Shown piece after piece: positions 2,865-63,792 of a DNA stretch of 64,000 nt. This DNA comes from an uncultured Candidatus Rokubacteria bacterium (GTDB lineage: Bacteria; Methylomirabilota; Methylomirabilia; Rokubacteriales; CSP1-6): positions 320,001 to 384,000 of the forward strand of contig CAVWWD010000006.1 of assembly GCA_963758635.1 (NCBI GenBank). Direction: 5' to 3'. The notes under the pieces were generated by a model. That model was not told the origin of the DNA. It ran no database searches and saw only the letters and a program-made list of their open reading frames with translations. Numbering within the stretch: the first letter of the stretch is position 1; every line of letters begins with the position of its first letter. Both the position numbers and the translations under genes were made by a program.

Positions 2865-2879
2865 CCCAAGGCCGCTCAG

Positions 2880-3285
2880 CAGCCAGTTTTCGGTACCTGA
2901 GTCCTGGCACGCGCGGCGGAATGCTGCGCTGTTGTTCGTCACGAACGTCAGGCCGCAACGAGAGGGCCGTGCGCCGGCCATGAGCAGTGTCGAACGTCCC
3001 GATTGGCGTGCCGCGTCGGGCCAGTGACGCCGCGACAGTAGCGAAGCGGTCCGCGGCCCTCTGATCGAAGGCAGCGACCTCCATCGGCTCGCCGAAGGTT
3101 GCGCTACGAGGCGGTGCCAGCCGGCGTGAGCGTCTCGTCTCGGCGCCGAACCGTGAGCTCGGCGAGAGTGATCGAACTGATGCAGAGTTGCGAGGGCCGG
3201 TGTTCGAGCAGTCGGGTACCGAGCACGTCCCGTGGCCACGGAGGGCAAAGCTCACCGTGTCCGTGTCGAGCATATACTCGGGCAT
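2880..3285 (-). pseudogene. vapC: VapC PIN-domain toxin, multiple frameshifts
   Basis: MPEYMLDTDTVSFALRG, CISSITLAEL, GTPIGTFD, LTFVTNN and ENW found in shifting frames. Confidence 0.8.
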
Positions 3286-3523
3286 CAGGCGAAGGGATCG
3301 CGAAGGTCACGCAGGCGCTTCTGCTTTGGACGGGGGATTTTTCCGCGCCAAGCGCCCAGGCAGGTCCGGAATTCGTCTGACCACTCGTCGGCCGCTTCGA
3401 GGATGACACGGCGGCCTTCACGGCGCACTAGAACCTCGCCCGGCGGTGCAAATCGGCACTCCTTGGGAGGCGGACGGCTTGGCTCCCCGCGTTCTGGAAA
3501 ATCTTGGCGCGGGTTGCTTTCAT
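3285..3523 (-). CDS. vapB: VapB AbrB/MazE-type antitoxin (one indel near 3465)
   Basis: MKATRAKIFQNAGSQAVRLPKECRF..EVLVRREGRRVILE; TGATG coupling to vapC. Confidence 0.8.
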
Positions 3524-3586
3524 GTTGAGAGTCTGAGACTCGCGTATATACGTGCGTCAAGCCTGCCGCGCTCGGTGCCCTTGTCC

Positions 3587-3657
3587 GCCCAACGCCGGCG
3601 CTCAGCGGCCGGAGCGAGCAGACGCGAGCACCGGCCCGCTGAAGCGGCCTGTTCAGG
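3587..3657 (-). other. Integron attC site (solo, far from intI)
   Basis: Minus strand CCTGAAC..GCTTCAGCGG..CCGCTGAGC..GTTGGGC; nearly identical to the attC at 62680-62749. Confidence 0.85.
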
Positions 3658-3674
3658 ACGTGCGTGTAGATCTG
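3651..3674 (-). repeat. 24-bp exact copy of intI 3' sequence (QIYTHVLN)
   Basis: CAGATCTACACGCACGTCCTGAAC is identical to 60413-60436. Confidence 0.9.
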
Positions 3675-3693
3675 TGCGATGCTGGCTAGCGAG

Positions 3694-16589: not shown

Positions 16590-19500
16590 TCATGGTCGCG
16601 CTGTCGGTCGCGCCCGCACGCCCTCCAGCAGCCTTTCGGTCTGAACCTTCGCTGGCTGGGCGCCGATCTCCTCGAACGTCATCAGTGCCCGCCGCAGCCT
16701 GGTCTCGTCGCCCATGCGCCTTCCCGATTCCTGCAGCGTAAGGCCGACTTGATATCGCGCGCCAAGACGTTCGCCGCCGCGAAGGCTCTCCGCCCACCAA
16801 CTCTCGGCTGCATTTTGCTGTCCGAGAAGCCACTCCAGTGTGCCTCGCTGTCGGAAAGCGCCCACGCGACCATCGGGGAAGCGCTGCCCGTGCTCGACGG
16901 CCTGCGCGCACGCCAGTCGCGCACGTTTGCCCTCGGCCTCCCGTCGTGGGGCCGCCGAGGCCTCGAACGTGATCAACGCCCACTGCGCTGCGCCGAGGAC
17001 CAGTGGCGTCAGCCACGACCCGTGCACACTGTGCGCGTCTGCAAGTCGGCGTCCCTCGTCCAGCGCATCACGTGCCTGCTCCATCTCACCACGCTCCACA
17101 TGACTCTGACCGAGAAGGCCGGCGGCGAACACCAACGAGTAGAAGTCGGGTACTTGCCGAAGCATGCGCCGAGCCTGCTTCAGATGATCGACCACTTCGT
17201 CCGTTGGGCCTTCGCTGCACATCGCCACCATCCCGAGGTCCGCCAAACCCCACCCGAGAATCTGCTTCTCCCCGGCGTCCCGGCCGGTCGCTATCAGTTC
17301 GTGGATGAGCTTCAGACTCTGACTAAACTCTCCACGCATGAACAGAACGAGATCCGTCGTCAGAGTCGCCTGCGCCCAACCCTTCAGGTGACCTAACACC
17401 TTGAAAGCGTCAGCGGCACGGTCGAGCAGTCCGAGAGCTTCATCCCAATTGCCCCGGTAGTGGCCATGAGTTCCCGCAGCGAGGTATGCGTACCCTAGCG
17501 CCAACGGGTGGTCCGACGCCGTCGCCAGCTTCATCGCCCGCCGATTGAGACTCCCCGCGATGCGATACAGTGCGAGCTGATCGCAGAGGCATCCGATACC
17601 CGCCAGCGCCTGGGACGTCGTGCCCGTGAGCCCCCCAGACGCGCTGGCCTGTAAGTGATACACCGCCGCGAGCAGGGTACGAGGCTGGTTCGAATAGAAA
17701 TGGATCCAACCCATCATCTCGTAGATGCGGCAAAGCTCTCCGGCAGTTTCGGCATCCCGCCTGGAGGTTGTCGGGTTTAGCCGCCTCCAAAGCCACTGCG
17801 CTGCTCCTTGTGCGGCGGCTTTGACGATGGCGAGCGTCACCGCGCTTCGGCCAGCAGGAAGGCGCCCCGCCCCGAGGTTCTCAAGGGCCCGTTGGAGATA
17901 CCCCTCGGCCTGCTCATGATCGCCGCGACGAAACAGCGCCTCTCCCATCCGCCCCTCGAGGAGCGCGCGTTCGCGGGGTGCCCATGTCTGGTCGGATGCG
18001 CGTTCGTAGGCATCGAACGCTCGTCGGTAGTAGCCGAGCGCCTCGGAATCGCCGGCGAGACGCCCAGCCTGATCCCCGGCCAAAATGAGATACTCCTTCG
18101 CCTTGGACCACACCTCGGCGCGGGTGAAGTGGTACGCAAGCAACCCGTAGAATTCCTCAAGCCGCTCCGAGAAGAGCGTTTCTATGCTGTCGCCGACTGC
18201 CTTGTGCAGCCGCCGTCGCTGCTCGAGAAGCAGCGACTCATAAGCGACCTCCTGAACAAGAGCGTGTCGAAATAGATACTCTACTTCGAAGAGCCGCTCG
18301 TCCCGGCGCAGGAGCTCGGCGTCGACGAGTCGCGCAAGCTGGCGGTCCAGGTCCTGCCGCGCCTGAGTCACCTCGCGCGCAACCCGATAGAGGAACCGCC
18401 GGCCGATCACCGCCGCGGTCTTCAGAACCTCCTTGGCCTCCTCGTCGAGGCGATCCACGCGCGCCATCACCAGGCCCTGGAGATTGTCTGGGATGCTGAT
18501 ACTTTCAACGGCGCGCGTCACGACGAACTGGCCGGTCCTGGCGTGTCGGACCAGCACTCCGGTCTCGATGAGGGTGGCCACCACCTCCTCGACGAAGAAG
18601 GGGTTCCCCTCCGCCTTCTGCTGTAGCGCGTCGAGCAGCTTCGCCGGCACCTCCGCGCCATCCACGAGGCTGCTCACGAGCTGGACGGTATGCTCGTCCG
18701 TCAGCGGAGCCAGGGGGATCTCGCAGAACCGATCCGCGTGCCGCTCTCGGGCCAGCGCCACGAGCCGGGACGGGGGCCCCCCCGGATCGGGTCGACTCGT
18801 GATGCAGACCAGGATGGAATGGGTGGCGACGAGCGGGAACAGGTGCTCGATCAACTCAGTGGAGGATTGATCGGCCCACTGCAGATCCTCCACCAACAGC
18901 AACAGCGGGCGCTCCTCCGAGAGCTTCTGGAACAGCCTCCGAAGGCTAAGGAACACCTGCTGTCCCATCGCCTCGGCGTCCAGAAAGCGCACCTTCGCCT
19001 GGAAGGGCTCGGGGACTTCCAGTGCCAGAAACGTGGCGAGGTACGGCAGTACTCCTCCGGCCTCGTCACCAAAGAGGCTCCCCACCCGCCGCTGCAGCTT
19101 CACCCATGCTTCGTGCGGGCTGTCGTGCTCGGCGATCTGCGCTGACGCCTTGACCATCTCGATGAATGGCCAGTGGCTGATCTGCTGTCCGTACGACAGG
19201 GCCCGGCCCTCGAGCACTCGGACCTCGACGCGAGAAAGATGGGCCAGCCCCTCGATGACCAAGCGCGACTTGCCGACACCGGCGTCGCCCGTCACGAACA
19301 AGATCCCGCCATGGCCGGCTTGCAGCCTCATCATGGCCATGACCGTCGCGCCCATCTCACGCTCCCGCCCTACCAGCGGAGCCATTCGGCGCGGAAGCCT
19401 TGCTTCCAACGGCCGCTGCCGAACCGCCACATACGTCCGCACCGGACGCGAAAGACCCCTCACACGCTTGGGGCCGAGCGGTTCACACTCCACCGCGGCG

Positions 19501-20117
19501 GAGGCGAGCCGATGCGTCTCCTCGGTGAGGTAAATGGTTCCCGGCTCGGCGATCTGCTCCATGCGCGCGGCAAGATGGGTCGTCTCCCCTACCACGGTAT
19601 ACTCCTGATGTACGTCGCTATCCATCGCTCTCGTCACGACTTCGCCCGTGTTCAAACCGACGCGTATCTGTACCTCGATATCGAGCCGTGCTTTGAGCTC
19701 TGCCGCATAACGTTTGATGGAGTCTTGCATGCGGAGAGCTGACAGGCATCCTCGGGCCGCGTGGTCCTCGAGAGCGAGTGGCGCTCCGAACAACGCCATG
19801 ATGCCGTCACCCATCACCTGATTCACTGTGCCGCCGAAGTGCCGCACCGCCTCGATCATCCGTTCGAGCACTGGATCGAGGAGCAAACGTGCGTGCTCAG
19901 GATCACGGCCGGCAAGTTGCTCGAAGGAGCCCTTGATGTCCGCGAACAGTACTGTCACCTGTTTTCGCTCGCCTTCGAGAGCGGTCTTGCCCAGATGGAT
20001 CTTTGCAACACTTGGATTGGGCGGCGAGCCCGTAGAGCGGTCGCCCAAACCCCGTCCGCAGTTTGGGCAAAAGTTGACGGTTTCCTGCACATCCTTCGCA
20101 CACCTCGGGCAGCGCAT
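16590..20117 (-). CDS. Zinc ribbon + class III adenylate/guanylate cyclase + AAA (STAND-type) ATPase + TPR protein
   Basis: CPRC..CPNC; VLFADIKGS, MGDGIMALFG, LAARME; GDAGVGKS; LVEDLQWAD; GNPFF; helical C-terminus. Confidence 0.9.
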   Translation of the reverse strand: MRCPRCAKDVQETVNFCPNCGRGLGDRSTGSPPNPSVAKIHLGKTALEGERKQVTVLFADIKGSFEQLAGRDPEHARLLLDPVLERMIEAVRHFGGTVNQVMGDGIMALFGAPLALEDHAARGCLSALRMQDSIKRYAAELKARLDIEVQIRVGLNTGEVVTRAMDSDVHQEYTVVGETTHLAARMEQIAEPGTIYLTEETHRLASAAVECEPLGPKRVRGLSRPVRTYVAVRQRPLEARLPRRMAPLVGREREMGATVMAMMRLQAGHGGILFVTGDAGVGKSRLVIEGLAHLSRVEVRVLEGRALSYGQQISHWPFIEMVKASAQIAEHDSPHEAWVKLQRRVGSLFGDEAGGVLPYLATFLALEVPEPFQAKVRFLDAEAMGQQVFLSLRRLFQKLSEERPLLLLVEDLQWADQSSTELIEHLFPLVATHSILVCITSRPDPGGPPSRLVALARERHADRFCEIPLAPLTDEHTVQLVSSLVDGAEVPAKLLDALQQKAEGNPFFVEEVVATLIETGVLVRHARTGQFVVTRAVESISIPDNLQGLVMARVDRLDEEAKEVLKTAAVIGRRFLYRVAREVTQARQDLDRQLARLVDAELLRRDERLFEVEYLFRHALVQEVAYESLLLEQRRRLHKAVGDSIETLFSERLEEFYGLLAYHFTRAEVWSKAKEYLILAGDQAGRLAGDSEALGYYRRAFDAYERASDQTWAPRERALLEGRMGEALFRRGDHEQAEGYLQRALENLGAGRLPAGRSAVTLAIVKAAAQGAAQWLWRRLNPTTSRRDAETAGELCRIYEMMGWIHFYSNQPRTLLAAVYHLQASASGGLTGTTSQALAGIGCLCDQLALYRIAGSLNRRAMKLATASDHPLALGYAYLAAGTHGHYRGNWDEALGLLDRAADAFKVLGHLKGWAQATLTTDLVLFMRGEFSQSLKLIHELIATGRDAGEKQILGWGLADLGMVAMCSEGPTDEVVDHLKQARRMLRQVPDFYSLVFAAGLLGQSHVERGEMEQARDALDEGRRLADAHSVHGSWLTPLVLGAAQWALITFEASAAPRREAEGKRARLACAQAVEHGQRFPDGRVGAFRQRGTLEWLLGQQNAAESWWAESLRGGERLGARYQVGLTLQESGRRMGDETRLRRALMTFEEIGAQPAKVQTERLLEGVRARPTARP

Positions 20118-41579: not shown

Positions 41580-42690
41580 ATGCACATCACCGCGTTCACG
41601 AGAGCCGTTCTGGTCGCGGCGGCCGCCACCGTGGCGTTCGCCGGCCCGGCGCTCGCCCAGCAGCAGCCGCGGGTGCTCAAGATGCAGTCGGCGGTTCCGC
41701 CGTCGTCGACGACGCAGGACGCCTTCAGGTTCTTCGCCGACCGGGTCGACAAGCTGACCGGCGGCCAGCTCAAGATCGACGCCTTGCCGGGTGGGGCGAT
41801 CGTGCCGCCCTTCGAGATCCTCGACGCGACCCACAAGAAGGTGATCGACGGGGCCTATGGCATCTCCTACTGGTGGTTCGGCAAGAACAAGGCGGCGACG
41901 CTGTTCGCCAACACGCCGGCCGGCATCGCCGGCATGGATGCCATCGACTTCATCGGCTGGCTCTACGACGGCGGCGGCATCGAGCTCTGGAACGAGTTCT
42001 ATCAGAAGGAGCTCAAGATGAACCTGGTCGCGATGCCGAGCATCCCGCCGAGCCCGCAGGCGCTCGGCTGGTTCAAGCGTCCGATCAAGGACCTCGCCGA
42101 CTTCCAGGGCATGAAGTGCCGCCAGACCGGCATCGTGGCCGAGCTCTACTCGAAGATGGGCATGGCCGTGGTCAACCTGCCGGGCGGCGAGATCCTGCCC
42201 GCCGCCGAGCGCGGCACCATCGACTGCGCCGAATGGGTCGGCGGCGTCGAGGACCTTCGCCTCGGCCTGCACACGGTGTGGAAGTACCACTACACGCCGG
42301 GCATGCACGAGAGCGCCTCGGTGGCCGAGCTCGCCATCAACAAGGACGTTCTGGGACAGCCTGACGGCCCAGCAGCGGGAGGCGATCCGGTCGGCCTCGG
42401 CGGAGACGTTCCTGCGCTGGTGGGCGACGTGGCAGAAGATGAACGCGGAGGCCATCGCCGAGTTCGTGGAGAAGCACAACGTCAAGCTCCTCACCACGCC
42501 GCCGGAGATCAACCGAGCGTTCCTCAAGACGTGGGACGAGTTCGCCGCGGCGGAATCGGCCAAGAACCCGTTCTTCAAGAAGGTCTACGATTCGCAGCGG
42601 GCCTACGCCAAGAAGGTGGTGCCGGCCAAGCGCTTCATGTTCCCGCCCTACGCCCTCCAGGCGGACCACTACTACCCCCTCCCCAAGTAG
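41580..42690 (+). CDS. dctP: TRAP transporter substrate-binding protein (indel near 42350)
   Basis: Signal peptide; GWFKRPI..GMKCR, ERGTIDCAEW, YTPGMHE. Confidence 0.88.
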
Positions 42691-42726
42691 CCGCGCGGAT
42701 CCGGGCGGGCAGGGTCGGGACGGCGG

Positions 42727-42756
42727 GAAGGGCGGCTTCGGCCGCCCTTCTCTTTT
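42727..42756 (+). terminator. Rho-independent terminator
   Basis: GAAGGGCGGC-TTCG-GCCGCCCTTC followed by TCTTTT. Confidence 0.8.
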
Positions 42757-42776
42757 CGTCGGGGAGGATGCGCCGC

Positions 42777-44312
42777 CTATCGCACGGCGTGCGGCAGCCA
42801 GAGGGCGATCTGCGGGAAGAGCAGCAGCAAGGCGAGGACGATGACCTGGATCACCATGTAGTCGGCCATGCCCTTGAAGATGATGCTCAGGTTCCATTCC
42901 GGCACCACGTTGCGCAGGTAGTAGGCCGACATGGCGACGGGGGGCTCGAAGTAGGCCGTCTGCATGTTGACGGCGGTCAGGGCGCCGACCCAGATCAGCA
43001 GGTCCAGCTTGCTCAGGCCGAACTGGAGCTTCTCGATCACCGGCATGACGATCGGCAGGAAGACCAGGATGATCACGGGCCACTCGAACGGCCATCCCAG
43101 GATGAAGAAGATCGCCATGATGAGGGTCAGCTTCCAGAAGTCTCCCATGGGGAGCCCGAGCAGCGACTGCGTGATCACGTTCGCCGAGCCGAGCTTGGTG
43201 AAGACGGCGCCGAACACGTTGGACGCCATGGCCAGGAACACGACCATCGCCACCGTGACCATCGTGCCCATGGCCGCGTTGGTGGCCGCCTTGAGGTCGA
43301 GCCGGCCGTAGACCAGGGCGAGCAGGGTGGCGCCGAACGCGCCGCACGACGCGGCCTCGGTGGGCGTCGCGAGCCCGCCCACGATGGTCCCGAGCGTGAA
43401 CCCGATCAGCGCGGCCAGCGGCGCGATGCCCAGCACGATGGCGCGGAAGTAGGGGCTGCGGACGTAGGGATACGCCGTGGCCATCGCCGGCACGAGCGCC
43501 GCGCCCGACACGGCCAGCGGACCGACGCCGACGGCGAGCGCCGGCACGCCCAGCCGGCCGAAGGCCGCGTCCGCCACGAAATAGACCATCACCATCAAGC
43601 AGACGAGGCCCAGCCCCACCACGGGAGCGCCGACCCGTTCCGTCGTCATGGCGTCGTAGGCGGCCTTGCGCTCGTCCATGGTCATGGCGGGCCCGAGCGC
43701 CGGGTTGATGAAGCTGCGGACCAGCGTGTAGATGATGTAGCTGCCGGCGAGCAGGAAGCCGGGACCGAACGATGCCGAGTAGAGCAGGTTGACGGGCACG
43801 CCCATGACCGGGCCCATCACGACCAGCATGATGCTGGGCGGAATCAGGATGCCGAGCGTGCCGCCGGCGGCGATCGCGCCCGCCGACAGGCGCGCGTCAT
43901 AGCGGCTCTTGAGCATCATCGGGGCGGCCATGATGCCCAGCACCGTCACCGCCGCGCCGACGATGCCGGTGGCCATGGCGAAGATGGTGGCGGTCAGGAT
44001 CACCGCCAGGTAGAGAGCGCCGCGCACCGGGGCGAGCAGGCTCCGGAGCGCTCCGAACAGCCGCTCCATGAGCCCGGCCTGCTCGGTCATGAAGCCCATG
44101 AAGATGAAGAGCGGCACGGCAGGAAAGATCTCGTCCTTCATCGTGCCCCAGATCTGGAGATAGGCGAGGTTGAACGTCTGCTCCCAGCCCAGTCCGAAGC
44201 CGCCGACGATGAGGGCGAGAAACAGCAGCGTGAAGGAGATCGGGAACCCGATGAAGATGATCCCGACCATGCTGACGAGCATCACGAATCCGAGGGTCTC
44301 GGCGCCGGTCAT
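42777..44312 (-). CDS. dctM: TRAP transporter large permease
   Basis: AVPLFIFMG, GTLGILIPPS, ATPTEA. Confidence 0.9.
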   Translation of the reverse strand: MTGAETLGFVMLVSMVGIIFIGFPISFTLLFLALIVGGFGLGWEQTFNLAYLQIWGTMKDEIFPAVPLFIFMGFMTEQAGLMERLFGALRSLLAPVRGALYLAVILTATIFAMATGIVGAAVTVLGIMAAPMMLKSRYDARLSAGAIAAGGTLGILIPPSIMLVVMGPVMGVPVNLLYSASFGPGFLLAGSYIIYTLVRSFINPALGPAMTMDERKAAYDAMTTERVGAPVVGLGLVCLMVMVYFVADAAFGRLGVPALAVGVGPLAVSGAALVPAMATAYPYVRSPYFRAIVLGIAPLAALIGFTLGTIVGGLATPTEAASCGAFGATLLALVYGRLDLKAATNAAMGTMVTVAMVVFLAMASNVFGAVFTKLGSANVITQSLLGLPMGDFWKLTLIMAIFFILGWPFEWPVIILVFLPIVMPVIEKLQFGLSKLDLLIWVGALTAVNMQTAYFEPPVAMSAYYLRNVVPEWNLSIIFKGMADYMVIQVIVLALLLLFPQIALWLPHAVR

Positions 44313-44317
44313 GTCCC

Positions 44318-44917
44318 TCAGACCTCGATCTTCTCGTGCTTGACCAAGAACTCGCCGACGCGCCACGCCCAGAGGCTCTTCATGAGCTCGGAGATGGCCT
44401 GCAGGAACAGCATGAAGGCGGTCAGCGGAATGACTCCGCGCAGCGGCCACAGGATCGGCGTCCAGGCGCCGGAGCTGGAGCGCTCGTCGATCGAGAACGC
44501 GTGGAAGAAGTCGTCGATCGAGATGAAGAACAGCACCGCCATGGTCGGCAGGAAGCACAGCAGGAGGGCCAGGCTGTCGATCATGCCCTTCGTCCGGTCC
44601 GAGAACTTCTCCCACAGCATGTCGGTGCGCACGTGGGCGCCCTTGAGCAGCGCCAGCGCCGACCCCAGCATGAAGAGGGTCCCGTAGGACATGGTCGTGA
44701 CGTCGAGGGCCCAGATGGTCGGAGACTTGAGCACGTAGCGGGCGAAGACTTCGACGACATTGGCGAAGACCAGCGGAATGATCACGAGCACGAACAGGTA
44801 GCCGGTCACCTCGGTGAACTTGTCGATCGTGCGAATGACGGCCAGGTAGCCGCGGGAGGGCAGGCGCTTGGGGGCGGAGGGGCCGGTCATCGCGGTCGCA
44901 ATGCTCTTTCCGGACAC
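44318..44917 (-). CDS. dctQ: TRAP transporter small permease
   Basis: EVFARYV..PTIWA, HVRTD; four transmembrane segments. Confidence 0.88.
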   Translation of the reverse strand: MSGKSIATAMTGPSAPKRLPSRGYLAVIRTIDKFTEVTGYLFVLVIIPLVFANVVEVFARYVLKSPTIWALDVTTMSYGTLFMLGSALALLKGAHVRTDMLWEKFSDRTKGMIDSLALLLCFLPTMAVLFFISIDDFFHAFSIDERSSSGAWTPILWPLRGVIPLTAFMLFLQAISELMKSLWAWRVGEFLVKHEKIEV

Positions 44918-44987
44918 ATCAGGGGCGATCCATCGAGCCCCCGCGCGTGCCCCGCCAGGAACGGCGGTGAGGCGTGCACAGCCCTAG

Positions 44988-45065
44988 TGACCCTCGCAGA
45001 GTACGGGAACGCCACGGGCCTCTACAGTCCCGCCGCTCGGGCATTGGTCTGATGCGCGAGGCTCA
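44988..45065 (+). repeat. Repeat family A, copy 4 (flanks CTAG / CCAG)
   Basis: TGACCCTCGCA...TGCGCGAGGCTCA. Confidence 0.88.
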
Positions 45066-59677: not shown

Positions 59678-60487
59678 ATGGCCACTGTCGCCCTTCGATC
59701 GAGCCGCTCGCTGTCATATCCCACGGCGTCGCAATCAGCCGCTCGCCCACTTCGCGTGCGCGAAGTCGACTCGAGCGGCACGCAGAAGCCCGACTGCTCG
59801 ACCGCGACCGGGCGGCCGTCCGCGCGAGACACTACAGTCGCCGCACCGAGAAGGCCTACGTCGCGTGGATCCGCCGCTACATCCTCTTCCACGACAAGCG
59901 CCTGTACGGGGCTGGAGCTCAGGCTGCTGGAGTGCTGCCGCCTACGCGTCCAGGACGTCGATTTCGGGACGAACCAGATCGTCGTGCGGGGCGGCAAGGG
60001 CGACAAGGACCGCGTGACGATGCTGCCGGCTGCGGTGAAACCGCATCTCGCGCGGCATCTGGAGCGTGTCCGCGAGCAACATCGGCGAGATCTCGAGAGC
60101 GACGCCGGCTGGGTAGAGCTTCCGACCGCCCTCGCCCGGAAAAACCCAAATGCCGGCCGGGAGTGGGTGTGGCAGTGGGTCTTCCCGGCGACGCGGACGT
60201 ATGTCGAGCCGCTCACGCGCGAGCGTCGCCGCCATCACCTGCACGAGTCGGTCTTGCAGCGCGCGGTGAAGCACGCGGCCTGGCGCGCCGGGATCGCCAA
60301 GCGTGCGGGCCCTCATACCCTGCGCCATTCGTTCGCCACTCACCTGCTCGAGGACGGCCGGGACATCCGGACCGTCCAGGAGCTCCTGGGTCACCGTGAC
60401 GTGTCCACGACGCAGATCTACACGCACGTCCTGAACCGCGGCCCGTCCGGGGTGCGCAGCCCGCTCGACGGGATGTTGGATGCGTGA
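59678..60487 (+). pseudogene. intI: Integron integrase with an internal deletion and two compensating indels
   Basis: [37 protein letters not shown]; integron-specific [38 protein letters not shown]. Confidence 0.92.
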
Positions 60488-60631
60488 TAATCACGCCGTC
60501 CCGACCGGGATATGCGGCGCGCTACACGACATCCCCGCGTTGGATAGCACGGCCAGGGAGACCCGGCCAAGGATCAGTAAGGAGTGGGAATCACAGGACT
60601 GCAAGAACCCAGCCTGGAGGGTGCGACCGAT

Positions 60632-60706
60632 GCTACCCGGCTCCGCGTTGCAGCCTCTGGGTCGCTACGCGGGTCCGCGTATCGCCGGACCGAATAGTAG
60701 TTGGGC
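60632..60706 (+). other. Candidate attI: core GTTGGGC at 60700 with upstream direct repeats
   Basis: GTTGGGCGG is the exact complement of attC1 R'' CCGCCCAAC; repeats GCTACsCGGsTCCGCGT at 60632 and 60664. Confidence 0.65.
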
Positions 60707-60768
60707 GGATGGGCCCCCGCGTTCCGCGACGAGCCCCCGAAAGATGAGGCCCAGCGTAGAATCCAGGC

Positions 60769-61089
60769 ATGGTCGAGCCCGAGATCTTGTTCGAGGCGCG
60801 CACGCCGCTCGGGTTCGTGGTCCGCATCACGCGGGCCCGGTGGGAGTTGATCGTCACGGTGAAGCATCCCGTGATGGCCGGTCGAGAGTCCAGCGTCAAG
60901 ACGGCGCTGGAGAACCCGGACGAGGTCCGGCAGAGCCGGACAGATCCCAACATGCTTCTCTTCTACAAGGCCGAGGCTTCGCGACGCTGGGTGTGCGCCG
61001 TCACCAGGCAAACCGACGATGACGCTTTCTTGGTGACAGCTTATCCAACCGATGCGATCAAAGAGGGAATGCGCATATGGCCGAAGTAA
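60769..61089 (+). CDS. Cassette 1 gene A: DUF4258-like putative toxin
   Basis: RW..I..KHP, PDEVRQS..D, FLVTAYPT; overlaps the next gene. Confidence 0.65.
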   Translation: MVEPEILFEARTPLGFVVRITRARWELIVTVKHPVMAGRESSVKTALENPDEVRQSRTDPNMLLFYKAEASRRWVCAVTRQTDDDAFLVTAYPTDAIKEGMRIWPK

Positions 61090-61289
61090 GCGTGCTCTAC
61101 GATCGGGAGGGGCGAACGCTCACCGTCTGGTTTAGCGATCGACGACAGGAACACGTCTGCGAGGAGACGGGCGACGAGGTGATCTTGATGAAGGATTCCA
61201 CAGGACGCGTCATCGGTTTTGAGAAGCTCAACTTCTCCATCCCCGAAACCGACCGCCTCCGGGTCGCCCTTGAAACGACGCCCGCGTGA
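61077..61289 (+). CDS. Cassette 1 gene B: DUF2283 putative antitoxin
   Basis: YD.EG.TL.VWF..ETGDEVILMKD..G.VIGFE. Confidence 0.75.
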   Translation: MAEVSVLYDREGRTLTVWFSDRRQEHVCEETGDEVILMKDSTGRVIGFEKLNFSIPETDRLRVALETTPA

Positions 61290-61295
61290 TCGACC

Positions 61296-61355
61296 GCCCA
61301 ACAACACGCTTCAGCAGTCGGCGCTTCGCGCCGCTGCTGAGCGTGCGCGTTCGGC
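61296..61355 (+). other. attC1
   Basis: GCCCAAC..GCTTCAGCAG..CTGCTGAGC..GTTCGGC. Confidence 0.9.
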
Positions 61356-61440
61356 GGACGGGAGATCGGTCACACCCCGAGACGACCGAAACGATTCGCG
61401 TGCTTGCCACGCCGACACCGACTCGCCTACCATCATCTGC

Positions 61441-61668
61441 ATGGACTACCTGAGCCGGATCACGATCGATCCCGAGGTCCGCTTCGGGAAGCCCTGCGTC
61501 CGCGGGACCCGCCTGACGGTCGGGGATGTCCTGTCGTACCTGGCGTCGGGTATGACCGAGGACGACATCCTCGCCGACTTCTCGCAGCTGACGCGGGACG
61601 ATATTCGTGCCTGTCTCGCGTTCGCCGCCGAGCGAGAGCGACGCATCCTGGGCATTCCCGCTGCCTGA
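61441..61668 (+). CDS. Cassette 2 gene A: DUF433 antitoxin
   Basis: ITIDPEVRFGKPCVRGTR..LASG..IL..LT..DI.ACL.FA. Confidence 0.9.
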   Translation: MDYLSRITIDPEVRFGKPCVRGTRLTVGDVLSYLASGMTEDDILADFSQLTRDDIRACLAFAAERERRILGIPAA

Positions 61669-62002
61669 ACCCAAGCTTCTCTTTGACGAGAACCTTGCCG
61701 CAAGCTTGGCCAGCGCTCTCTCGGACCTATACCCGGACTCAGCCCACATCAGCGGCGTTGGACTCGCGGCTGCTCGCGACCGCCAAATCTGGATGTACGC
61801 TGCGGCAAACGGGTTCGTCCTCGTGACCAAGGACGAAGACTTCCATCGGCTGAGCGTTCTTCACGGCGCGCCGCCGAAGGTCGTCTGGATCGGCCTCGGC
61901 AACTGCTCGACGGACGATGTAACGCACCTCCTCCGGGCTCGGCACCGCGAGATCGTCCAATTCGTTGAGCACCCCGAGGCCACCTTTCTGGCGCTCGGGT
62001 GA
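61661..62002 (+). CDS. Cassette 2 gene B: DUF5615 PIN-like toxin (probable CTG start)
   Basis: LLFDENL, D..IW.YA, VTKDEDF, PPKVVW..GN. Confidence 0.85.
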   Translation: MPEPKLLFDENLAASLASALSDLYPDSAHISGVGLAAARDRQIWMYAAANGFVLVTKDEDFHRLSVLHGAPPKVVWIGLGNCSTDDVTHLLRARHREIVQFVEHPEATFLALG

Positions 62003-62013
62003 CGCTATCGACC

Positions 62014-62074
62014 GCCGAACAACCGGCTTGAGCGGACGCGCTACGCGGCCCGCCGCTGAACCGGAGTGTTCGGC
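62014..62074 (+). other. attC2
   Basis: GCCGAAC..GCTTGAGCGG..CCGCTGAAC..GTTCGGC; R'' complements the cassette start GTTCGGCGG. Confidence 0.88.
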
Positions 62075-62126
62075 GACTGACAAGCGGGCAGATGGGGCAA
62101 GTCACGACGTGATCGGGTGAAGCCGG

Positions 62127-62404
62127 GTGCCAAGGATCGCCGAGTTCTACGGAATCGCGATCTACATGTATTTTCGCGATCACGGCGTCCCTCACTTCCA
62201 TGCGATCTACGGCGATCAAGAAGCGGTATTCGCGATTGAAGGTTTGCGGCTGCTCGAGGGGCAGCTCCCGCGACGAGCTCTTGCGCTCGTTCGGTCCTGG
62301 GGGAAAGGTTTCGGGAAATGACACTACACGGCGATGAGCTCCAACGGAACTGGGAGTTGGCGCGGGCCAACCGATCGTTGCAGCAGATTGCGCCTCTGGA
62401 GTGA
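62127..62404 (+). pseudogene. Cassette 3 gene A: DUF4160 toxin-like gene interrupted by an insertion of about 17 nt
   Basis: MPRIAEFYGI.I.MY..DH.PHFHA.Y..LVRSW / LH.DEL..NW..IAPLE. Confidence 0.8.
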
Positions 62405-62416
62405 GGAGCTCGGTCA

Positions 62417-62734
62417 ATGAGATGGCGAGTCACCAAGGCTAAGGCGTGCGGACCCCATTCCGTGGACCTGACCTTCAAAGACGGGAGGCGCAAGCGGGTC
62501 AATCTGCTGCCCCTTCTCCAGGGGCCGGTGTTCCAGCCGCTGCGAGACCCCGCGTTTTTCGCGCGGTTGAAGCTCGATCCGCTGGCGGGAACTGTCGTCT
62601 GGCCGAATGGGGCTGACATAGCGCCCGAGACACTGTACGACCTCTCAGATGAGGCCAAGGGGAGAGCGAGAGGTCCATCGCCGAACAAGCCGCTTCAGCG
62701 GCCCGGTGCTCGCGTTGCTCGCTCCGGCCGCTGA
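62417..62734 (+). CDS. Cassette 3 gene B: DUF2442 antitoxin-like protein (ORF reads into attC3)
   Basis: TFKDG..GPVFQPLRD..F..GTVVWPNGADIAPE.LY. Confidence 0.85.
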   Translation: MRWRVTKAKACGPHSVDLTFKDGRRKRVNLLPLLQGPVFQPLRDPAFFARLKLDPLAGTVVWPNGADIAPETLYDLSDEAKGRARGPSPNKPLQRPGARVARSGR

Positions 62735-62749
62735 GCGTGAGCGTTCGGC
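62680..62749 (+). other. attC3
   Basis: GCCGAAC..GCTTCAGCGG..CCGCTGAGC..GTTCGGC; TCGCCGAAC complements the cassette start GTTCGGCGA. Confidence 0.9.
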
Positions 62750-62818
62750 AGCGCGGGTACCCTCACCGCCCCGTTGAGCGGCTTGTGCTCCTGTATATCG
62801 TAGACGTATACTCGTGGC

Positions 62819-63133
62819 GTGGCGCTCATCCCCGAGTTCTTCCCTGACGTTGAGGGGTTTCAGTGGGATGAAGGTAACTCCTCGAAGAATTGGGCGCGAC
62901 ACGGGATTAGCCAGACAGAGGCCGAGCAGATCTTCGTCAACCGGCCCCTGGTAGTCATTGGCGATGTGGCGCACTCCGGTACCGAGACGCGGTATTTCTC
63001 TTTCGGACGGACTGACGGAGGGCGTCTACTGACCGTTGTCTTTACTGTGCGCGGTCAACTGCTCCGGGTGATCTCCGCGCGCCCGATGAGCCGCAGGGAA
63101 AGAAGAGGATATGCCCAAGCGACGCGACCGTAG
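62819..63133 (+). CDS. brnT: Cassette 4 gene A: BrnT family toxin
   Basis: FQWDEGN..KN..HGI..EAE.IF..HS.E.R..G..VVFT.R..RVISARPM..ER. Confidence 0.9.
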   Translation: MALIPEFFPDVEGFQWDEGNSSKNWARHGISQTEAEQIFVNRPLVVIGDVAHSGTETRYFSFGRTDGGRLLTVVFTVRGQLLRVISARPMSRRERRGYAQATRP

Positions 63134-63449
63134 CACGATCCCGGCATTTCGCTCCGAGGCCGAGGAACGTAGGTTCTGGGAGACTCACGACACCAGCCCG
63201 TTCGTCGATTGGACCAAGGCTCGCGTCGCCGTCTTTCCCAACTTGAAGCCATCCACGGAGACAATCTCCTTGCGGTTACCTGCCGCGCTCCTGGCGGAAC
63301 TGAAAGCGCTGGCCAATAGGCGCGACGTGCCATATCAGTCACTGCTGAAGGTATTTCTCGCGGAACGGATTGCCCGTGAGACGGCAGCGGTCAGCGCGCC
63401 GCCGAACAAGCGCATGCAGCCGACGGCGCGCCCTGCGCGCCGCAGCTAA
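63111..63449 (+). CDS. brnA: Cassette 4 gene B: BrnA/CopG-like antitoxin (ORF reads into attC4)
   Basis: IP.F.SEAEER.FWETHD..NLKPST.TISLRLP..DVPYQSL.K. Confidence 0.85.
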   Translation: MPKRRDRSTIPAFRSEAEERRFWETHDTSPFVDWTKARVAVFPNLKPSTETISLRLPAALLAELKALANRRDVPYQSLLKVFLAERIARETAAVSAPPNKRMQPTARPARRS

Positions 63450-63464
63450 TACGCCGCGTTCGGC
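63401..63464 (+). other. attC4
   Basis: GCCGAAC..GCATGCAGC..GCAGCTAAT..GTTCGGC; right arm somewhat degenerate. Confidence 0.8.
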
Positions 63465-63598
63465 AAGACCCGGAAGGGGAACCGCTGGTTGCGGATGGCG
63501 CTGTCGCGGCGGCTTTTCCTGACGCCGCAACGGTCAACCGAGCACTGCGTGCCCTGCTGAACGCCGTACCATCTCAGCGGGCGCGGCGGCGTAGCGCT

Positions 63599-63643
63599 GA
63601 CTAACAACAGGCTGGAGCGGCCCGGCTCGACGCCGGCCGCTCA
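63599..63643 (+). other. Truncated attC5 (no R')
   Basis: GACTAAC AACAGGCTGGAGCGG..CCGCTCA, then ISL3-like sequence. Confidence 0.6.
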
Positions 63644-63792
63644 ACACGATCCGCGTGCTCAGCGTCGCGCCCACGGGCTCCGCGACGAGGAGTACCTCCG
63701 GCTCAAGATTCTCCCCTGCATGCTGCCCGAGATCTGACCGTGCCATTGTCGCCACACGTCCCCGATTCACCCGCACGACTTCACGAAGAGCC
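63640..63792 (+). mobile_element. ISL3-family remnant: transposase C-terminus and right inverted repeat
   Basis: LNTIRVL/QRRAHGLRDEEYLRLKIL.CMLPEI*; ends CGAAGAGCC, the complement of the GGCTCT end typical of ISL3. Confidence 0.75.

Follow-up and report, generated by a model that had tools for sequence, protein, structure and literature searches.

Cassette arrays dominated by toxin-antitoxin (TA) modules have already been published, and the array described here, in a 64,000-nucleotide stretch of DNA from an uncultured Candidatus Rokubacteria bacterium, is not a new kind of system. In the sedentary chromosomal integron of Vibrio cholerae, two-gene TA cassettes are bounded by attC sites and account for 19 of 179 cassettes, where they stabilise a large array (PMC13108822; 10.1101/2024.07.02.601686). 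TA cassettes have promoters of their own, and cells that lose one by excision are killed (PMC13108822). They are plentiful in environmental pools, where they have been termed selfish (PMC10661359, PMC7370490, PMC8618304, PMC9668308) and hard to lose (PMC10661359). In Xanthomonas, intI, the gene for the integron integrase, is widely inactivated and the arrays are frozen (10.1101/2025.06.18.660453). Additionally, Halorhodospira halochloris has an integrase-less cluster of attC sites lacking integron-integrases (CALIN) with five to six TA systems, three of them BrnT/A, and inserted group II introns (PMC7923331).

The stretch (hereafter the window; positions are counted from its first base) corresponds to positions 320001-384000 of contig C6 in genome G000, an assembly of 6.17 Mb in 12 contigs that is 87% complete. 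Near its end lie a deleted intI, an attI site and four TA cassettes. We read them, with moderate confidence, as a small chromosomal integron that took its four cassettes from a pool rich in TA pairs and has since been frozen and begun to decay. It shares attC-bounded two-gene TA cassettes with the V. cholerae integron, but here there is no other cargo for them to stabilise. It shares with the H. halochloris CALIN a content of mostly type II TA open reading frames (ORFs), one frameshifted toxin and an adjacent insertion sequence (IS); unlike that CALIN, it combines four different families with an intI remnant and attI. Its layout (intI remnant, attI and attC array, small, several per genome) resembles the intI-pseudogene integrons and CALINs of Cury et al. 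2016 (PMC4889954), from whose examples it differs in host lineage and R-box sequence. A CALIN in the strict sense has no integrase nearby, and here an intI pseudogene and attI adjoin the array.

A literature search that excluded most subscription journals returned no publication on Rokubacteria integrons, judged by titles and the openings of abstracts. The significance of the locus is modest: it adds Methylomirabilota (Rokubacteria) to the lineages that have integrons with co-oriented intI and a TA-rich pool of cassettes, the 20% TA base rate measured in relatives provides a yardstick for 'TA-only' arrays, and the DUF4258-like/DUF2283 pair of the first cassette is a testable TA candidate with a predicted fold and interface.

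Integrase remnant, attI and attC sites

The intI pseudogene (59791..60487, + strand) retains its C-terminal catalytic motifs, and the C-terminal piece scores 276 bits against TIGR02249 (cut-off 265), which places it in the integron-integrase subfamily; the closest integrases are Rokubacteria or Methylomirabilota records. By tblastn, the remnant comprises residues 3-39 and 130-321 of a 321-residue relative. About 265 nt are deleted near 59901 (residues 40-127 of that relative) in addition to a frame break, and blastn against three intact alleles places the gap from nt 116 to 382. Scattered frame breaks and many small indels occur in host genes of this assembly, for which reason we place no weight on single-base indels. 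With ~265 nt missing, the gene does not encode the intact integrase of a functional integron. An earlier note, made from the sequence alone, had likewise called intI dead, without remarking that the gene has the same orientation as the cassettes. That orientation was found in all 28 intI-bearing arrays tallied in relatives, and co-oriented intI is known from Treponema (PMC3607928) and from the 'inverted integron-integrase' group (PMC4889954). When G000, as far as it is assembled (87% complete), was searched with the C-terminal piece, the matches were intI tails and Xer-like genes, and none was a full-length intI.

A spacer and attI follow at 60488..60706 (+), with the crossover at G60700/T60701. 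The 220 nt 3' of intI have two further copies in G000, at 95% (C8:944.6k) and 93% (C8:161.6k) identity, and the similarity of the three copies stops at the GTT core, within a few bases of where the first cassette begins, which places attI at 60700/60701. Both sister attI copies begin with non-TA cassettes. A scan of the intI-attI region found no consensus cassette promoter (Pc), and the GC-skew signal on C6 was too weak to orient the array relative to replication.

Several platforms per genome, in varied states of decay (intact, internally deleted, reduced to a 3' tail, or a 5' stub beside an attC site), were seen at G000:C8:161.5-161.9k, C8:550.5k and C8:944.6-944.8k, and in three relatives (G168:C1 and C2; G199:C2; G243:C26). 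These multiple decaying platforms suggest repeated copying of the platform around the chromosome.

Downstream of attI are four attC sites on the + strand: attC1 (61296-61355), attC2 (62014-62074), attC3 (62680-62749) and attC4 (63401-63464). Each displays R''-L''-L'-R' boxes and a bottom-strand hairpin with extrahelical bases, with fold z scores against shuffled sequences of -5.2, -4.6, -3.3 and -3.0, respectively. The R boxes mostly read GTTCGGC, the usual R box being GTTRRRY. The first bases of cassettes 1-4 match their own R'' over 9, 9, 9 and 7 nt; since cassettes 2-4 have an identical 7-mer, the evidence from these matches is independent only in part from cassette to cassette. Thus, the earlier identification of an integron array with boundaries marked by R''/R' complementarity is borne out by the deleted intI, attI, four folded attC sites and R'' matches. 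GC content is 62-65% in the cassettes and 74% in the flank, and two other low-GC stretches (63-69% GC) lie at 17001-20000 and 42001-45000 of the window.

The array ends in a scrambled segment (63458..63737, +), the remnant of a fifth cassette. It contains an IS110-like transposase scrap, an antitoxin tail of the BrnT-partner type, a degenerate attC (63599-63663) and a probable ISL3 scrap; one of these calls rests on a match at E=0.005, and the ISL3 label, for which no tool gave a match, is our presumption. The earlier note had taken vapBC as a stray fifth cassette, which proved mistaken: vapBC forms a locus of its own, 57 kb upstream of the array.

Four toxin-antitoxin cassettes

Each cassette contains two small coupled genes of TA families, recognised by Pfam/NCBIfam in cassettes 2-4 and by a weak Pfam match together with the fold in cassette 1. 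The claim that all four are two-gene TA cassettes of different families holds, with the correction that dhiT in cassette 3 is split by a 17-nt insertion. The toxins of cassettes 1, 2 and 4 look full length, and that of cassette 3 is truncated.

In cassette 1, a putative toxin gene (60769..61089, +) precedes a gene for a putative DUF2283 antitoxin (61077..61289, +; Pfam), and both proteins have >1,500 homologues each. The toxin is DUF4258-like (22.1 bits, E=2e-4, below the Pfam cut-off of 25) and is predicted to adopt a BECR (BrnT/RelE/CdiA-like) ribonuclease fold. With its structure model (predicted local distance difference test, pLDDT, 92.8), VIA listed CdiA toxin-immunity, BrnT-type, colicin D and RelE structures at Z 7.8-5.4, headed by a CdiA-CT complex (Z 7.8) and BrnT-type structures (Z 6.9 and 6.5); these values are middling (<8, a commonly reached range), and the top rows belong to one fold class. 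Foldseek returned nothing for the toxin at E<=0.001. The predicted complex of the pair scored 0.88, with a best control of 0.00, a partner pLDDT of 90 and 100% contact agreement between runs; of 157 solved pairs, 116 attain the mark set for this score, as do 2 of 215 mismatched ones. The predicted interface takes in the invariant residues H33, R73, Y92 and K98. Cassette 1 is thus predicted to encode a BECR-fold toxin bound by its DUF2283 partner. The literature search described above returned no publication on DUF4258 and DUF2283 as a pair.

Cassette 2 combines an antitoxin-like DUF433 gene (61441..61668, +; Pfam; PDB 2ga1) with a gene for a PIN-like DUF5615 toxin (61661..62002, +; Pfam), which is full length if the CTG at 61661 is the start. 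The DUF5615 protein is 79% identical over 113 of 113 residues to a homologue at locus L153, and a PDB sequence search with it found no match. In domain pair and gene order the cassette resembles the DUF433/PIN_10 (COG4634) pairs, which have been put forward as potential TA systems (PMC5499597, PMC4963859).

Cassette 3 has the same domain pair and gene order as DhiTA, a validated TA system of DUF4160 and DUF2442 proteins (PMC8198452), but here the dhiT (DUF4160) toxin gene (62127..62404, +) is broken. The insertion (~62306-62323), defined against an 85%-identical allele in G160, shifts the reading frame, which stops after 64 of 86 residues; an environmental contig aligns across it with 18 gaps. 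A search of G000 and the relatives' loci fetched found no second copy of the insert with <=3 mismatches, and our guess is that it may be an IS end. The DUF2442 (DhiA-type) antitoxin gene follows at 62417..62734 (+).

Cassette 4 matches BrnTA in domain pair and gene order. Its BrnT toxin (62819..63133, +) scores above the Pfam cut-off, matches the toxin of PDB 7vd7 and is 85% identical to a homologue at L225; the partner is a CopG/BrnA-type antitoxin (63111..63449, +; Pfam CopG_antitoxin). The NCBIfam DhiT, DhiA and BrnA scores of cassettes 3 and 4 fall below cut-off. The antitoxin ORFs of both cassettes (62417-62734 and 63111-63449) run through R'' into the hairpins of attC3 and attC4, because the R'' box GCCGAAC has no stop, and homologous cassettes display the same read-through.

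A promoter scan of the cassettes found one sigma70-like site (0.6 expected), at 61404-61433 just 5' of the DUF433 gene of cassette 2. By eye, -10-like hexamers lie 6-8 nt 5' of the start codons in cassettes 1, 2 and 4, which suggests leaderless promoters of their own.

Cassette content in relatives and origin of the array

In order to place the array in its lineage, we annotated 334 cassettes at 105 loci in ~28 Methylomirabilota genomes. Sites were located with an attC covariance model (R1) built from 14 attC sites of G000; R1 sites were found in 36 of 40 relatives and an intI match in 15 of 40. Loci were picked for intI presence or several attC sites, many arrays stop at contig edges, and the last four genomes were added because they have long contigs or a cassette resembling one in the window. 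Five loci of other phyla, duplicate loci and, in the second set, cassettes <260 nt were left out of the 334. Pfam input was 98 ORFs in the first set after removal of intI pieces and overlapping frames, 150 of 186 small ORFs, none >~200 residues, in the second and 68 ORFs in the third, and a cassette was scored as TA if at least one gene matched a TA-associated family. By this measure 68 of 334 cassettes (20%) are TA, a lower bound since Pfam scoring misses unnamed TA pairs, and the rate by genome ranges from 2/28 to 15/38. The earlier description of TA cassettes as a small minority is a poor fit to this lineage.

At E<0.1, G000 itself has 25 distinct attC sites spread over 16 loci, not counting one weaker site and two duplicates on the reverse strand. 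Apart from the four window cassettes and a gene-less fused site, these delimit 20 cassettes, two of them without a clear ORF; four are TA by an upstream Pfam match, or six with two likely cases, and the count leaves aside several further TA pairs that lie beyond a final attC and have no recognised site themselves. Other cargo includes ABC_sub_bind, glyoxalase, hydrolase-cyclase and unknown genes.

With 4/4 TA, the window array is a true outlier against the relatives (p ~0.002; Fisher p=0.0019) and against the rest of G000 (4 or 6 of 20; p=0.007 or 0.02), and a special mechanism is not required. These p values are rough since related genomes are not independent, and they are uncorrected values for a single array that was picked out of a very large scan. 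Adjacent TA pairs in relatives are near expectation (10/216 seen, 9.0 expected), so placement looks independent; all-TA triples (0/126) and quadruples (0/72) had expectations of 1.1 and 0.12. Among the 33 loci with >=4 cassettes, the top TA fractions are 3/4 and 3/5, in L164, L155, L037 and L046, of which L037 adjoins an intact intI.

The cassettes are mobile, the same cassette occurring in other contexts. By DNA search, single window cassettes were found in 32 of 250 other genomes of the phylum, with no match over more than about one cassette, and two cassettes in window order were never found among the best 2 candidates per genome in the 251 phylum genomes searched. Soil and bog contigs contain pieces of the array at 96-99% identity.

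IntI inserts cassettes at attI. Under our preferred reading, IntI, either the array's own before the deletion or that of a lost sister copy, would have inserted each cassette at attI, one by one. A pool with one TA pair in five cassettes would have supplied all four, which the intI deletion would then have frozen, and decay would have begun. We count the array as decaying because of the dhiT disruption and the IS scraps at its end. The all-TA content would be the high tail of the pool, noticed because the scan was large, and would call for no host-selected function. By analogy with other systems, TA cassettes probably owe their abundance to having promoters of their own and to the cost of losing them.

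Several points weigh against this reading. Four of four is rare under independent draws (0.2^4 = 0.0017), and relatives have no all-TA windows of four (0/72) or three (0/126) cassettes. The fifth remnant is antitoxin-like too, which makes the TA run less likely still. The first cassette is TA here but was so in only 2 of 28 arrays of relatives, three of the four toxins appear full length, and own promoters are poorly supported by a scan that found 1 site where 0.6 is expected. Additionally, cassette excision is scarless, so that winnowing would leave no sequence trace.

Winnowing of this kind is the strongest alternative, possible but in our estimate rather improbable: a longer mixed array would have lost its non-TA cassettes to excision by IntI, the addictive ones being kept, and intI would have been deleted afterwards. 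Killing on cassette loss has been demonstrated in V. cholerae (PMC13108822), and the outlier p of ~0.002 also speaks for it. Loci with >=6 cassettes are poorer in TA than shorter ones (6/50 vs 46/210), in the direction expected from winnowing but not significantly so (p=0.17). Arrays beside an intact intI are indeed mixed (10/40 TA in 13 arrays), but those beside a broken intI show no enrichment (8/52 in 15 arrays; Fisher p=0.29, with four arrays of uncertain intI status assigned to neither class). Within the single genome G168 (4 contigs), intact, deleted and tail-only integrons carry 2/9, 1/8 and 1/4 TA, and TA runs are not in excess in relatives. The earlier note looked to relatives to favour a residue over a selected bank, and they do so in that the intact-intI arrays are mixed, but not in the broken-intI arrays, which are unenriched. 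We find a broader version improbable: that the array is the natural end-state of cassette-loss killing, that co-oriented Methylomirabilota integrons multiply around the chromosome as units of intI tail, attI and cassettes which winnowing turns into pure TA arrays, and that cassette 1 is an uncharacterised TA family whose DUF2283 protein plugs the BECR ribonuclease active site.

It is unlikely that the array is a bank of TA systems selected by the host for phage defence or dormancy and fixed when the integrase was lost. The four different families and three seemingly full-length toxins are consistent with a bank, and among the recognised defence systems of sedentary integrons those of TA type are the most frequent (10.1101/2024.07.02.601686). 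However, the dhiT toxin is broken, and the array as a unit was not found in 250 other phylum genomes (best 2 candidates per genome). G000 has dozens of other TA toxin genes elsewhere (38 PIN matches, 6 BrnT loci and 6 ParE matches), and its sister platforms hold non-TA cassettes. PADLOC-DB 2.0.0, a library from 2023 in which most TA families are not included, matched 0 of 8 cassette proteins. The mixed arrays beside intact intI in relatives likewise argue against a selected bank.

It is very improbable that assembly or binning merged cassettes of several strains in a long-read consensus. Small indels are numerous in the assembly, the array is not spanned by any public contig, and a search of public runs found none from the source sample, the best share of the array's sampled words being 16%. 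However, the array is embedded in a 424-kb contig, every junction between an attC and the next cassette is correct, and G000 has two more, diverged copies of the attI platform.

Other integron remnants and cassettes of the lineage

The separate vapB/vapC locus (2870..3680, - strand) comprises vapBC itself at ~2870-3521 (-), which carries indels, and an attC (3587-3657) to which a 25-nt 3' tail of intI is fused. At this joint (3587-3680, -) the 25 nt of the intI 3' end abut the AAC of the attC R'' box. Such a product would be expected from a top-strand attC x secondary-site event or from a microhomology deletion. The fusion was not seen to recur: of two metagenome pattern scans, one gave no match and the other a single match that was no attC; short joints of this kind in environmental contigs have sides of 20-30 nt and unread middles.

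Genes of the ABC_sub_bind family (PF04392) rank with the most frequent cassettes of the lineage (L003, L052, L060, L037, L048, L086, L099, L140 and others). G000 has 52 matches to this family, including a tandem run at C3:399-408k without a clear attC, and integrons may feed its expansion. A search for hidden attC sites at 14 other TA or ABC_sub_bind loci of G000, with filters off, was negative (best E=0.09).

A recurrent two-gene cassette without a Pfam match (~77 aa + 81-99 aa; L043:4253-4803 and L188:2084-2566) has a TA-like layout and is possibly an unnamed TA family. Ribose-phosphate pyrophosphokinase occurs as an attC-bounded cassette at L035:11056-12027 (by Pfam) and L215:1983-2954 (by sequence likeness). 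Lastly, a group II intron maturase fragment lies within an integron array of G199 (L221:6837-7479).

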